A DNA stretch of 64,000 nucleotides from contig CAMBVS010000009.1 in assembly GCA_945871425.1 (NCBI GenBank), positions 1,894 through 65,893 of the forward strand, in the 5' to 3' direction. The DNA is from Rhizobium sp. Q54. GTDB taxonomy: Bacteria; Pseudomonadota; Alphaproteobacteria; SHVZ01. Every line of letters starts with the position of its first letter. Position 1 is the first letter of the stretch. Positions 33,001-39,000 of the stretch are shown here, one piece after another. Made by a program: the position numbers.

Positions 33001-36000
33001 AAATACCCACCCATGTGGAGGTCGACCGGGGTCGTAGCGCGGCCTTCCGCCGGGCAAGTTCTGCCGAGACTCACGCCTTCCGGCCGCATGGAGTCCCCGG
33101 CGCCCGGGCGAGCGCCAAGGCCCGGCTTCCCCCACCTTGGAGCCTGCCCTGCCGGGCCTGTAGGATGACACTGCCGCCGTTCGACGCCAGCGCCCGGCAC
33201 TAACGGATTCAAGGAGAGGTCGATGCCGTCAGCGGTGGACAAGTGAGCGTGCCGGCGGATCTCCGCCTCATCCATCACCACATCGGCGGACGGGCCGGCG
33301 ACACCGGCTTCAACCTGCCCCCGGCCTTCGAGCGCGACGTCGTGCGGGTGCTCTACGACGCAGACGCCGAATCCGTCGCCCACGCCGAAGAGCGCTCGGC
33401 CGCGACGGGGCGAACCACCATCGTCCGCCCGTACTTCGTCGGCGCTCCGGGCCGCAAGGTCACGTTCCACATCAACTACTGCCCCTACCTGTCGTCGGGG
33501 CGGGTGGTGAAACCGAGCTATCAGCCCTACTACCTTTCGGTGAGCGGAACCGACTACAGCTGGGCCGAAGCCGGCAAGACCATCCGCGCGGTCGAGATCG
33601 AATCACAGGGGCTCGACCAGATCACCCTCGGCGAGGGTGCCGACCTGCCGCCTCCGGACTTGCTGTCGATCGACACCGAGGGCGGCGAGGACGACGTCAT
33701 CGCCGGCGCGCCGCGCCTCCTCGACGATCACGTCGTCGCCGTCATCGCCGAGGTCAAGTTCCACCCGGTCTACGTGGATGGACCGCTGTTCGGCGACATC
33801 TCGGCGATGCTGGCGCGCCACGGGTTCCTGTTCGCCGAGTTCGAGATGCTCGGCCGTATGTCGCCCATGCGCGGCCGCCTGGGCACGCGCGGCCGCGGCC
33901 TTACCGTCTATGGGGATGCCCTCTACTTCAAGGATCCGGAAGTCATCGCCAAGCGCCTCGGCGACCGCGCCGGCATCGCCCTGCACAAGCTCGCCTTCAC
34001 CGCCATCTGTTCCGGCTATTTCGAGTTCGCCCAGCACTGCCTTAGCTTTTGCCCGGCCAGCACGCTGCCGACCGGCGAGATTCCCATCTATCTTCGCTTC
34101 GTCGACCAGTTCCGGCGGCTCTGCGAGGCGACGCCCGACGTCAAGCCCTGGACCTTCGTCGAGGCATACACCGCCGAGACGAGCCAGGCTCGGTTCTCGC
34201 CTGTCTCAGAGGCCGACAGCGCGCGGATCAACGCCGAATTTCGCGCCAGAGCGAAACTGGAAACGCAGAAGATCGTGCGCAACGAGGACGACATCAACCG
34301 CGCCGCCAACACCCCGGCTCTCGCCCGGCTATTCGAGCGCTACGGCATGAGCGAGCAGGCCAAGATCCTCATTGAGACCCAGCAGCAGGTCATCGGGACA
34401 TACATCGGCAACGCCGTCCAATGGTCCGGGGGCTAAGTCCGGCCCGGCGACCCGAGCGCGGCGAGGATGGCCGCCGCGGACAGGCCATGTGCCGCCAGCA
34501 GGTCGTCGTGGCTGCCGTAGCAGTGGATGAACGCGTCCTTCAGCGTGAACGTTTGTAGCGTGCAGCCGGCCTTGGCTTCCCAGGCGAGCTGCTTCGCACG
34601 TGAGGCGAGACCGCCCTGGGGCGCGTGCTCCTCGATGACGATGACCCGCTTGTAGTCGCGGAGCGCGCGGACGATCCCCTCCTCGTCCATCGGCTTCAAG
34701 GTATGGGAGTTCATCACGGCGACGGACGCGCCCTGCCTTTCGAGCGCGTCGGCCACCTCGAACGCCGTCTTCATGATGACGCCATAGGAGAGGATGCAAA
34801 CGTCCTTGCCCTTCCTCAGGGTGCGCAGGCGCCCGAAGACGAAGGGATCGGGCGCGGTCTCGGTGAGCTTCGGCTCGCCCGACTTGCCCAGCCGGAGATA
34901 GAGCGGGCCGCGGTTGTCGACCGCGCAGAACCGGGTCATCTCCCGCACCTCGAGCGGATCGCAGGGCGTCAGGATCTGCATGTTGGGGATGGCGCCGGCG
35001 ACGGCGACGTCCTCCTGGGCGTTGTGGGTGCCGCCGAGCTGCGAATAGACCACGCCCGCGCCCATGCCGACGACGGTGACGGGCAGGTTCTGGTAGCAGA
35101 GGTCGACGCGGACCATCTCGAACGGCCGGTAGAGCGAGAAGGTGGCGATGGTGTAGGCGAAGGGCCGCATTCCCTTCAGCGCCAGGCCCGCGCACATGCC
35201 GATCATCACCTGCTCGGCGACGCCGACATTGATGAAGCGCTCGGGCGAGTCGGCGGCGAACTTGGCCATCGGTCCGGCCGGCGAGATGTCGGCGGCGACG
35301 ACGTAGATCCGGGGGTCGGCCTGGGCGAAGCCGTAGAGCGTCTCGGCGAAGGTGTTCCTCATGGCCGGCCTTCGGCGAGCTCGGCCATCGCCGCCTTGAA
35401 CTCTTCCGGGTTCGGCGAGCGGTAGTGCCAGATCACCACGTTCTCCATGAAGCTGACGCCCTTGCCCTTGACCGTCTTGCCGACCAGCATGAAGGGCCGG
35501 TCGCCGCGCCGTTCCGAGACCGCCCGCACGATCCCTTCGGAGTCGTGGCCGTCCATCTCGACCGTCTCCCAGCCGAAGGCCTCGAACTTGTCGACCAGCG
35601 GATAGAAGCTGGGATGGGTGATGCTGGTGCGGCCGACCGTCTGGAAGTCGTTGTTGTCGACCATGACCACGAGGTTCGAGACTTTCAGGCTCGACGCCAT
35701 CAGCACCGCTTCCCAGGTCGAGCCCTCTTGCAGCTCGCCGTCGGACAGCACGACGTAGACGGTCGCGCCCGTGCCCTTGTGACGCTCGGCGATCGCCATG
35801 CCGACGGACATGGAGAGACCGTGGCCGAGGCTGCCGGTGGACGCCGCGATGCCGGGCACGCCGTAGTCCGGGTGCATACCAAGTTTGCCTTCGATCGTGC
35901 AGTACTTCTCGAGCTCGCCCTTCGGCAGGATTCCGAGCGCATCGAGGATGATGTACTGGGCGACGCAGCCATGCCCCTTCGAGAGCAGGAAGGTGTCGAG

Positions 36001-39000
36001 GTAGGCGCCGGAGGAATCCTGCCGCATCATCCCGTGATAGATGGCATCGACCATCTCCAGGCACGAGAACGCCCCGCCGATGTGCAGGGCCGGCACGGTC
36101 ATCGCCATCTCGAGGATGCGGCGGCGGAAGCGCCGGCCACGCGCGCGCGCCGCCAGGGGGTCGAAGCTGTTCCGATGCTGTCGGCTGGTCATGACGGCCG
36201 CTACTCGACGATGGTCCAGTAATAGTCGCCCGTGTAGCCGGCCTCGGCGAAGATCCGCTTCCACCCTTCGGGGTAGTCGTGAGTGTAGGCGGTCAGCACC
36301 CAGCTGAGGAACAGCTCCTTCTCTTCCGGCGTCCGGTAGGAGTCGACCTGGACATAGGCACGCCCGCGGGAGAGGCGTTGGATCTCCCGGAGCGCACGGA
36401 CGCAGTCGGCGCGGTCGACGTTGTGGATGGCGTTGATCGAGATCACCGCATCGAAGCTCCCGTCCGGGAACGGCAGCTTCCGGCAGTCGCCGAGATGCAT
36501 CCGGCCGACCACCTCGGGCTCGCAGTTCATCACGGCGTATTCCGAGATATCCAGGCCGAACGCCTCCAGGCCCGGGCAGGCCTTCATCAGGTCCTTGACC
36601 AGGAAGCCCTTGGCCCCGCCGACGTCGAGCACCCGCTGGCCGGGCTTCAGGCCGAAATGCTGGACGATGTCCTCCGCGATCGGAACCCAGCGGCCATCGT
36701 AGCGATAGCCGCCATAGCCGGTGTCGCGCGTCCCGTCGAAATACGCCTGCCCGTACTGGCGCGACAGCGCGATGTTCTCCGGCGACTGGGCTTCCGCCCG
36801 CTTGGTGATGTTGCGCTTGGACCGGGGATAGCGCCGGAGGAGGTTCACTTCAGCCACGGATGCCTCCGGTCGTTTCCTGATGGACGCGGGCAAGGCCAGC
36901 CTCGAGCGCGGTCGGCGTGAAATCCGGAAAGGCCGCCTTCCGGTCGGTCACGTCGAATTCGCGGTGAAGGATCGGGTTCTGCCGTGGGCTCGGCACGATC
37001 GCGACCGGCTTGCCCTGCCCGACGATCATCTCCGCCACGTCCCGGAACGAGACCGAGCGGCCGGTGACGGCGTCGAGAGTCCCGGCCGACCGGTGGATGA
37101 GGCAGAGCTCGACCAGCCTCGCCACGTCATCGATGAAGACGTGGTCGCGCTTCTCCTCGCCGCCGCCGAACAGCGGGATGTCCTTCCCTTCCGCGGCCAG
37201 CCGGCGAAACCGGTTCGGGCCATAGCCGTTGTGCGGGTCGGTCGCCCCGTAGAGCAGGCTCGGCCTCAGCGTGGCGAGCGGGATCCTGGTCGATGTCCGG
37301 AGCGCCAGCTCGCGCGCCGCATGCATCATGCCGTGCATGCTGTCGGGGGCGACGGGCGTCCGGGCGTCGACACGCTGGGCCTCCTGCGCATAGACCGCAT
37401 CGGAGCCGATGTTGACGAGATGCGCCACCGGCGATCGCCCAAGGGCGCCCAGAACCGCCTGCACCATCGTCAGGTTCCGGATCAATCCCCCGACATCGCG
37501 GCAGGGCGCGATCGCCGAGACGAAGACCAAGGCATACTCCGGACGAAGCAGCGCGGCCAGACGCTCGTCGGCGCCCGGCTGCAGCAGGTCGACATCCGCC
37601 CGGGACAAGGCCAGCGTCGCTATCCCCCTGCTCCGCAAGTGACGGTCGACGGCCCCGCCGACGAAGCCGCGGGCACCCATGACGACGACACGAGGCGGAG
37701 GCGCCGGCGGAGTCTTGAGATGGGTCAGCATGGCGATGAACCGTCAGGTGTTCGGCGCGCGGCCGAGGACATGGTGCACGAGGCCGGCGCGTCGCGTCGA
37801 GGCCGCGTCGAGGATACCCCAAGGATCGATCACGATCTTGCCGCGCATGCGCTCGCCGATCGCAGACGGGTCGAGCGACCGGAACTCGCTCCATGGCGTC
37901 ATGATGACCAGGGCGTCGGCCCCGCGGCAGGCGTCGAGCGCATCCCTCGCCGCCTCGAGACGCGGATGGAAGGACGAATCGGCGGCAACCGCCGGGTCGT
38001 AGGCCCGCACCCGCACCTTCGGCAAGGCAGCGAGGAGCGCCAGGGACGGCGAGTTCTTGGTCGACTTTGTGTCCTGCTTATAGGCGAGCCCCAGCCATGC
38101 CAGCGTCGCCTTCGAATCACCGGCCAGCCCCGCCTCCCTCAGGCGGTCGAGGACCCAGTCGCGCCGGCGGCGGCTGTTCGCGAGCCAGGCCGCGACCACC
38201 CCGGCATCGGTGTCGTGGGCCTGTGCGAGCCGCTGCACCGTGGCGAGGTCCCGCTCGAGATTGCCGCCGGCGATGCCGAGCCCCGGCGCCAGATACGCAT
38301 GGGGACCGATCCGCCGGTCGAGCTTCAAGGCCGGGGCGATCTCGCTCCAGTCGGCGCCGATCCGCTCGCAGAGCCCGGCCAACGTATTGGTCGTGCTGAC
38401 GCTGGAGACCAGGAACATGTTGATCGAGATCTTGGCCAGCTCGGCGCTTTCGTAACGCATCGGCAGGATCGGGCAGCCGAAGGCACCGAGGAATCCGGTC
38501 AGCGCCGGCGGCAGCGGTGCCGCCGGATCGGCGCAGCCGACGATGAAACGCTCGGGCTTCATCGCGCGCTCGACCGCGAGGCCGAAGATCAGGGTCTCGA
38601 CCTGGCAGTACACGATCCGGCCGGCCGGCGCGTTCGCCCTGGTGAAGCCCGGCGGCACCTGGCTCAGGATCACCAGAACGGCATCCGGACGCATGGCGGC
38701 GGCTACGACATCGAGCAGCGGCTTGAGGCCGGAGAGGTCGCTCCCGCCGCGATCGTCGGTCGGCACGTCCGGGCAGACATAGATCAGCTCACAGCGTTCG
38801 AGGTCGTGGATGTCCGCCGTATAGGCGATGCGATCCGCATTGGCGGCGATCAGCTCCGCCAGGCCCGGCTCGTGGATCGGAAGGTCACCCGCATTCAGCC
38901 GGTTGACGAGCGCCACATCCGGATCGAACGCGACCGTGCGCGCGCCCTTCGCTGCCGCCGCGGTCGAGGAGACGATGCCGAGATGGGTCAGGCCGGCGAA

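Follow-up and report, generated by a model that had tools for sequence, protein, structure and literature searches.

A stretch of 64,000 nucleotides from Rhizobium sp. Q54 (contig CAMBVS010000009.1, positions 1,894 to 65,893; the whole stretch is called the window here) carries on its minus strand an operon of sugar-tailoring genes that ends in a transketolase (TK) encoded by two genes, TK-N and TK-C. TK-N matches Pfam Transketolase_N (E 4.7e-34) and TK-C matches Transket_pyr plus Transketolase_C, which is the split layout, with the PP domain and the Pyr and TKC domains on two adjoining polypeptides. The closest solved structures are those of the split TK of Carboxydothermus hydrogenoformans (6YAK for TK-N, E 8e-51; 6YAJ for TK-C, E 6e-53). 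Against NCBIfam NF004559 (transketolase) TK-N scored 213 bits and TK-C 180 bits with a cut-off of 488, a full-length model being out of reach for half-proteins, and TK-C scored nearly as well, 170 bits, against the DXS model. The nearest named relative among the matches listed is a Salinarimonas metagenome-assembled genome (MAG), at 77-82% identity. Window G+C is about 68%, and G+C at third codon positions (GC3) is 0.88-0.97 in the correct frames of the TK genes, which indicates genuine coding; frame-specific GC3 also assigned them to the minus strand.

Operon gene calls were taken from metagenome contigs identical to the window, and domains were identified by Pfam and NCBIfam scans. Read on the minus strand, the order is SIS, HAD, transaldolase (TAL), DegT1, DegT2, SDR1, SDR2, NT/kinase, GFO, UGDH-like, SDR3, MT, TK-N, TK-C (Table 1), where SDR is a short-chain dehydrogenase/reductase, NT a nucleotidyltransferase, GFO a Gfo/Idh/MocA oxidoreductase and MT a methyltransferase. 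Intergenic gaps within the operon run from -19 to +107 nt. An earlier note on this DNA had described the TK as two overlapping subunit genes with an ATGA junction, lying in one operon with a transaldolase at 45866-46612. Both descriptions are correct: the domains agree, the TK-N stop and TK-C start share the ATGA at 35359-35362, and Pfam and NCBIfam matches place the transaldolase on the same strand of the operon. The junction is no mark of the TK pair, since SIS/HAD, HAD/TAL and GFO/UGDH-like are joined by ATGA too, and it therefore belongs to the style of the operon rather than to the split. Nor does the pair lie between the heptose-type genes and the methyltransferases, as had been stated; it is the final cistron pair, straight after the methyltransferase.

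Cassette conservation and the remodelled active site

A profile built from close TK-N homologues and run on species-representative genomes picked out at least 591 related stretches. The best 80 were taken with 10-kb flanks and searched by tblastn with every window protein to establish synteny. A 12-gene block, SIS-HAD-TAL-SDR1-SDR2-NT/kinase-GFO-UGDH-like-SDR3-MT-TKN-TKC, recurs in most of the 80 loci. The TK pair forms the 3' end of this block, hereafter the cassette, and its proteins are each 50-77% identical to their window counterparts; SDR2 is the best-conserved member, with a mean identity of 73%. DegT1 and DegT2 are a locus-specific insert outside the core cassette, with orthologues only in L011 and L048. 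Carriers include Bradyrhizobium manausense, B. guangdongense, Thalassobaculum and an Azospirillum plasmid (L076), together with MAGs assigned to Gallionella, Myxococcota, Nitrospirota, Acidobacteriota, Dehalococcoidales and Syntrophaceae. We take the cassette to be a conserved, horizontally spread unit. Gene counts (Table 1) refer to the 54 loci having at least 9.9 kb upstream; for SIS and HAD, which often fall past the flank end, counts are lower bounds and are left out of the table. An MT orthologue is found upstream of TK-N in 70 of the 77 loci that have 0.9 kb or more of upstream sequence. In other genomes the cassette is part of polysaccharide loci, where its neighbours are either ABC-2 exporters and glycosyltransferases or an aminotransferase and an acetyltransferase. 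Two loci, L016 in Thalassobaculum and L055, keep SDR1-SDR2(-SDR3)-TKN-TKC, with TAL, SIS, HAD, the kinase and MT absent within 10 kb. As a measure of co-evolution, correlations between the identities of TK and of other cassette proteins gave no information, since the identities all lie within a narrow range. A plasmid collection held no close TK homologue, all matches in it being below 40% identity.

To compare active sites, 74-80 cassette orthologues were aligned with the C. hydrogenoformans split TK and E. coli TktA; E. coli numbering is used throughout. His26, His66, His100, Asp155, Asn185, His261, Arg358, Glu411 and His473 are invariant in the orthologues and the window enzyme, which has the canonical thiamine diphosphate (ThDP)/Mg2+ residues (Asp155, Asn185), Glu411 and the catalytic and donor His set. 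From yeast and E. coli TK structures we take Arg358, Ser385, His461 and Arg520 to bind the substrate phosphate and Asp469 to bind the C2-hydroxyl of the acceptor. Only Arg358 is retained at the phosphate site: Ser385 is replaced by Ala or Val (Ala in window TK-C), and His461 and Arg520 are Gly and Lys, respectively, in all 74 orthologues. The C2-hydroxyl binder is lost as well, with Leu at position 469 in 72 of 74 orthologues and in window TK-C, and Phe434 and Leu466 are changed to Ile and Tyr. Previous work showed that acceptor range is governed by R358, S385, D469 and R520, and that His100 marks a TK with a hydroxylated donor, the position being Phe in DXPS (PMC7661550). The residue pattern thus suggests a TK-type donor half-reaction with an altered acceptor.

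The C. hydrogenoformans split TK (PMC7661550) has the same two-gene domain layout and the same cofactor and donor residues as the window TK, but it keeps Ser385, His461, Asp469, Arg520 and Phe434, all five of which are replaced in the window enzyme. It is also the sole TK of its organism, and active, whereas the window TK sits in a glycan cassette. Split TKs were stated to occur only in archaea and some thermophiles (PMC7661550); the cassette TKs contradict that restriction and correct the published account.

The remodelled pocket extends well beyond the cassette. TK-C was searched against 1.84 billion cluster representatives, with 16,516 matches. Down to about 32% identity, the majority of the best full-length representatives have the signature Ile434/Gly461/Tyr466/(Leu, Ala, Asn, Gln)469/His473/(Lys, Arg)520, and few of them carry the canonical Phe/His/Val/Glu-Asp/Arg signature; the pattern was confirmed in a further 119 sequences. 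Distant signature-bearing members are found in CDP-hexose and amino-sugar operons without sugar-phosphate genes. The operon at L093, for example, encodes a glucose-1-phosphate cytidylyltransferase and a CDP-glucose 4,6-dehydratase, both above cut-off, followed by a sugar C-methyltransferase, an SDR, TKN, TKC and a GT2 glycosyltransferase. Three distant loci have Bac_transf, one or more methyltransferases, TKN, TKC and DegT, with a PglF-like dehydratase next in two of the three; Litorilinea has DegT-TKN-TKC-Bac_transf, and a cassette variant reads TAL-SDR-NT/kinase-SDR-?-?-TKN-TKC. Natural fusions bearing the signature join TK-C to a methyltransferase dependent on S-adenosylmethionine (SAM) (P0257) and to a Zn-dependent alcohol dehydrogenase (P0155, the other of the pair). 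Loci L016 and L055, the distant contexts and the fusions do not fit a supply of sedoheptulose-7-phosphate, and they do fit a nucleotide-sugar intermediate as the substrate. Relatives in the databases carry the generic annotation "transketolase". A literature search found no account of the cassette, no function assigned to this branch of TKs and nothing relevant tying transketolase to flagellin glycosylation, O-antigen or heptose, nucleotide-sugar branching or bradyrhizose.

Among the other cassette enzymes, TAL scored 356 bits against TIGR02134, above the cut-off of 282, and the alignment shows that it retains what we take as the Schiff-base Lys, the Asp and Glu, and the TAL-type Phe. TAL may still feed precursor supply; a role like that of LmbR, the transaldolase that makes octulose-8-phosphate in the lincomycin octose pathway (PMC4351081), in making a longer ketose phosphate, would fit at least equally well. 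The SIS protein scored 55 bits against NCBIfam gmhA (cut-off 209); its closest solved relative is Burkholderia pseudomallei GmhA, at 56 bits, and its phosphate loop carries an insertion. The HAD protein scored 107 bits against GmhB (cut-off 178) and the NT/kinase 139 bits against HldE (cut-off 521). In the NT/kinase the HldE domain order is swapped, with Pfam CTP_transf_like at residues 51-139 and PfkB at 240-512, and this order is kept throughout the cassette. GFO gave weak matches to inositol dehydrogenase and sugar 3-ketoreductase, and SDR3 gave weak NCBIfam matches to GDP-fucose synthase and RmlD; in the NCBIfam scan no window SDR reached the 4,6-dehydratase cut-off.

In the UGDH-like enzyme the family motif GGSCFPKD reads GGNLERD in the window and GGN[LI]ERD across copies, and the catalytic Cys is Asn in all 57 cassette copies aligned, which comprise the window copy and orthologues in L007-L089. 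Given the UGDH mechanism, loss of the thiol should block oxidation to the acid and halt the reaction at the carbonyl stage, which makes this enzyme a candidate carbonyl source. A UGDH-derived aldehyde is a possible acceptor within the cassette itself. As the acceptor across the whole TK branch it was ruled out, because distant members lack a Cys-less UGDH and the UGDH of L016 has the Cys. A second window UGDH, at 60656-62314, retains the Cys.

Proposed role of the transketolase

The TK pair is probably not a spare pentose-phosphate enzyme, and the cassette most likely builds a nucleotide-activated sugar for flagella or cell-surface polysaccharides. We favor the reading that the split TK is a neofunctionalised ThDP-dependent tailoring enzyme of this nucleotide-sugar cassette. 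Taken as a whole, the reading seems to us evenly balanced between right and wrong, and any single choice of acceptor deserves much less confidence. In the proposed pathway, TAL would make a ketose phosphate, a heptulose or longer, more than seven carbons being possible by analogy with LmbR, and the SIS isomerase, PfkB kinase, HAD phosphatase and NT would convert it to an NDP-sugar. The SDR, GFO and Cys-less UGDH-like enzymes would oxidise, epimerise or deoxygenate the NDP-sugar and so expose a carbonyl. The TK pair would then move a two-carbon ketol unit from a hydroxylated donor, either a ketose phosphate or hydroxypyruvate, onto that carbonyl; addition to a ring ketone would give a C-branched sugar, as with YerE, and addition to a terminal aldehyde would extend the chain. 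The SDR3 reductase, MT and, at this locus, the two aminotransferases would complete the sugar, which would probably be passed to flagellin or another surface glycan by a TPR-glycosyltransferase encoded nearby. The widest form of the proposal is more tentative, and we rate its chances at somewhat below even: that the large TK branch (Ile434/Gly461/Tyr466/Leu-or-Ala469) forms C-C bonds on nucleotide sugars and, with a lincomycin-like transaldolase entry, makes a branched or chain-extended sugar (C9-C10+) that decorates flagellin, O-antigens or exopolysaccharides in hundreds of species.

Several points weigh against the tailoring role. Arg358 is retained and position 520 is still basic, which would be compatible with a phosphorylated substrate. 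TKs are known to accept aldehydes, and we know of no precedent in the family for addition to a ring ketone. The halves of the cassette lie more than 10 kb apart in L023, L076 and L083, so that the TAL and SIS genes missing from L016 and L055 may lie elsewhere in those genomes. Gene neighbourhood is correlative evidence. Residue patterns, synteny and fusions were observed directly, as were gene content and genomic contexts; the chemistry of each step, the substrates and the glycan target are what we infer from them. Finally, the active-site comparison uses an E. coli TktA reference with 14 of 14 landmark residues at their published numbers; the contrast with the cassette orthologues is the same when the C. 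hydrogenoformans sequence is used.

The earlier note had proposed that TK and TAL paralogues maintain a private pool of sedoheptulose-7-phosphate, to be turned into an activated heptose by GmhA-, HldE- and GmhB-type enzymes. That these are dedicated paralogues in a sugar-tailoring operon is upheld by the 12-gene block, which is found across phyla and once on an Azospirillum plasmid. Further, TAL is catalytically intact and above its NCBIfam cut-off, the SIS, HAD and kinase/nucleotidyltransferase are of fitting classes, as in the ADP-heptose pathway, and TK keeps its cofactor and donor residues and Arg358. The role of TK as the supplier is not supported: four of the five residues that bind phosphate and the C2-hydroxyl are replaced in all orthologues, L016 and L055 keep TK with its SDR neighbours in loci lacking TAL, SIS and the kinase within 10 kb, and signature-bearing relatives belong to operons for CDP-hexoses and amino sugars, which have no need of sedoheptulose-7-phosphate. 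The canonical ADP-heptose pathway, unlike the window operon, has no dedicated TAL or TK, bacteria drawing the heptose of lipopolysaccharide (LPS) from the ordinary sedoheptulose-7-phosphate pool. With SIS, HAD and the domain-swapped HldE-like protein scoring far below the GmhA, GmhB and HldE equivalog cut-offs, the heptose identity of the product is unproven, and we consider a private pool quite unlikely. The possibility that housekeeping genes were placed here by chance, or that the pair is an inactive relic, is scarcely credible, with nothing beyond the generic annotation of relatives to recommend it. It is countered by translational coupling, a strong coding signal, invariant catalytic residues and the plasmid-borne copy in Azospirillum (L076), and the synteny across phyla excludes chance placement of housekeeping genes.

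A role at the sugar-phosphate level might take another form, in which TK and TAL build an unusual long ketose phosphate, such as an octulose or nonulose phosphate, from modified substrates before nucleotide activation. The split TK Orf15A/B does similar work in the specialised pathway to rifamycin. Such a role would account for the sharing of one operon by TAL and TK in most loci, for Arg358 and the basic residue at 520, and for a SIS protein very divergent from GmhA with an insertion in its phosphate loop; LmbR, which makes octulose-8-phosphate, is a precedent (PMC4351081). We nevertheless think it unlikely, given that TK lies apart from the TAL-SIS-HAD block and always adjoins MT and SDRs, that TK occurs without TAL, SIS or the kinase in L016, L055, L090, L091, L093 and L094, and that its fusion partners are a methyltransferase and an alcohol dehydrogenase, not sugar-phosphate enzymes. 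Very unlikely is a fourth role, in which TK would split glycolaldehyde off a ketose phosphate to furnish an N-glycolyl or hydroxyethyl group on an amino sugar. No lipoyl, E2 or acyl-carrier partner adjoins TK in the inspected loci, and the enamine intermediate is nucleophilic and cannot acylate an amine without an oxidant. Such a C2 unit is generated by the two-component TK of quinocarcin and naphthyridinomycin biosynthesis, DegT directly follows TK-C in at least 12 cassette loci and in distant contexts, and two DegT genes are present in the window operon, but in many of the cassette loci DegT is absent within 10 kb.

If the tailoring role is correct, transketolase chemistry has been recruited to nucleotide-sugar tailoring, which to our knowledge is documented among ThDP enzymes only for those unrelated to TK, e.g., YerE. 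The cassette would then offer a biosynthetic handle on higher-carbon and branched sugars of environmental and plant-associated bacteria (Bradyrhizobium, Azospirillum, Thalassobaculum, Nitrospirota and others), in which, as far as we know, the genes for such unusual sugars are mostly unassigned. Its TKs would be natural cases of the changes at Ser385, Asp469 and Arg520 (and His461) that engineers make to broaden acceptor range, and thousands of database entries named "transketolase" would be wrongly placed in the pentose-phosphate pathway in metabolic reconstructions.

Likeness to known sugar pathways

In lincosamide octose biosynthesis, roles have been assigned to LmbR, LmbN, LmbP, LmbK and LmbO, then to LmbL, LmbZ, LmbM and LmbS (PMC4351081, PMC12945683). 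The window operon matches this set by class only: transaldolase, isomerase, kinase, phosphatase, nucleotidyltransferase, dehydrogenase, NAD(P) oxidoreductase, epimerase and aminotransferase. We read this likeness as a resemblance of enzyme classes and not as demonstrated orthology. The lmb cluster has no transketolase (PMC12945683, Table 1), whereas the window cassette has the TK pair, and the window kinase and nucleotidyltransferase, unlike those of lmb, are HldE-type and fused.

YerE is a ThDP enzyme that branches NDP-4-keto sugars with pyruvate in the CDP-based pathway to yersiniose A. The relative at L093 is similarly placed, after an NDP-hexose 4,6-dehydratase and before a reductase in a CDP-glucose operon. 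As we understand it, YerE belongs to an acetolactate-synthase-like family with pyruvate as the donor, whereas the window enzyme has TK Pfam domains and keeps His100. In photosynthetic Bradyrhizobium, an 11-gene operon tagged by a "gdh" mutant is the presumed bradyrhizose pathway (PMC4743980). Neither the window nor the Bradyrhizobium cassette loci contain a gene matching the gdh primers of that work or the translations of these primers; a link to bradyrhizose may exist but is unproven.

Glycan target and neighbouring genes

Left of the cassette are flgC, fliE, an flhB-like gene, fliO, genes for a TPR protein and a MotB-plug protein, fliM and two fliL genes. The region at 31804-32836 is an alphaproteobacterial-style flagellar block; on its minus strand, tandem FliL paralogues (177 and 163 aa) lie upstream of fliM, followed by DUF6468 and the MotB-plug protein. 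Right of the cassette is a gene for a TPR protein with a C-terminal glycosyltransferase (Table 1); TIGR04372 matches residues 433-636 with 207 bits (cut-off 45), and the TPR region spans residues 54-209. FlmG, the flagellin O-glycosyltransferase of Caulobacter, likewise combines TPR with a C-terminal glycosyltransferase (PMC7591256), and the window protein shares this architecture, which alone was compared, beside flagellar genes in an alphaproteobacterium-like genome. A flagellin glycosylation island is plausible because flagellar genes and a TPR-glycosyltransferase gene lie near the cassette, and the glycosyltransferase is a candidate flagellin glycosyltransferase of such an island. Among the window ORFs covered by the Pfam and NCBIfam scans, which were part of the total, there was no flagellin gene and no nonulosonic-acid (Pse/Leg) synthase.

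Table 1. Genes of the operon and its surroundings, with the number of loci, out of 54, in which each cassette gene is present
Feature	Position	Strand	Length (aa)	Basis or remark	Loci (of 54)
FkbM-family methyltransferase, convergent	33243-34436	plus		Pfam Methyltransf_21	
TK-C, Pyr + C-terminal-domain subunit, acceptor pocket remodelled	34433-35362	minus	309		
TK-N, ThDP-binding (PP) subunit of split TK-like enzyme	35359-36192	minus	277		
MT, class I SAM methyltransferase	36201-36857	minus	218	Pfam Methyltransf_11/25; 8 nt upstream of TK-N	49
SDR3, RmlD/Fcl-like short extended SDR, probable ketoreductase	36850-37731	minus	293	Pfam Epimerase	41
UGDH-like nucleotide-sugar dehydrogenase without catalytic Cys	37744-39021	minus	425	NCBIfam NDP-sugDHase 197 bits	44
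GFO, Gfo/Idh/MocA oxidoreductase	39018-39932	minus	304	Pfam GFO_IDH_MocA; ATGA-coupled to UGDH-like gene	47
NT (N-terminal) + PfkB sugar kinase (C-terminal), HldE-like	39938-41497	minus	519		44
SDR2, GalE/RmlB-like extended SDR	41502-42509	minus	335	Pfam Epimerase E 1e-55	47
SDR1, extended SDR	42509-43519	minus	336	Gene call, Pfam, NCBIfam	44
DegT2, pyridoxal phosphate-dependent sugar aminotransferase	43627-44760	minus	377	Pfam DegT_DnrJ_EryC1 E 2.5e-109	
DegT1, pyridoxal phosphate-dependent sugar aminotransferase	44750-45850	minus	366	Pfam DegT E 1.6e-102	
TAL, transaldolase	45866-46612	minus	248	Pfam TAL_FSA E 9.5e-45; TIGR02134	42
HAD-IIIA phosphatase, GmhB-like	46609-47175	minus	188	NCBIfam GmhB 107 bits	
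SIS-domain sugar-phosphate isomerase, distant GmhA relative	47172-47828	minus	218	Pfam SIS_2; first gene of operon	
LysR-family regulator, divergent	48255-49205	plus		Pfam HTH_1 + LysR_substrate	
TPR + TIGR04372 glycosyltransferase, FlmG-like architecture	54823-56814	minus	621-663		

To judge from its position, the divergent LysR regulator possibly controls the operon. The SIS gene and lysR have in common a 426-nt intergenic region (47829-48254), and an AT-rich stretch with the imperfect repeat GATATGATATCAGGTAATATCAG, a possible LysR box, lies immediately upstream of lysR. At the other end of the operon, the stop codons of TK-C and of the FkbM methyltransferase gene on the opposite strand overlap in CTAA (34433-34436), which leaves no space for a terminator between the two transcription units. 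The FkbM methyltransferase was not seen in other loci of the 80-locus comparison and is not conserved with the cassette.

Beyond lysR, from 48255 to 62314, is a second sugar-tailoring block with an RmlD-like reductase, several methyltransferases including two of the TylF type, a DegT protein and a hexapeptide acyltransferase. It also encodes a PhyH-family dioxygenase (53859-54752) and a 756-aa C-methyltransferase (58432-60702) with an N-terminal extension of about 350 aa. A TPR-rich ORF on the plus strand (62109-63998) runs past the window end, with no catalytic domain in the available 630 aa. At the left end of the window, a 951-aa ORF on the minus strand (3-2855) has a weak MobA/MobL relaxase-like match (E 1.4e-4) and could mark a mobile-element remnant. 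Elsewhere, plasmid p5 of Azospirillum argentinense Az39 (L092) carries a distant TK-like pair between transposases, at 48336-50098 of the record. Two B12-binding radical-SAM/cobalamin proteins flank the pair, along with a kinase, an oxidoreductase and a methyltransferase, and the same enzyme family thus serves a different specialised pathway there.

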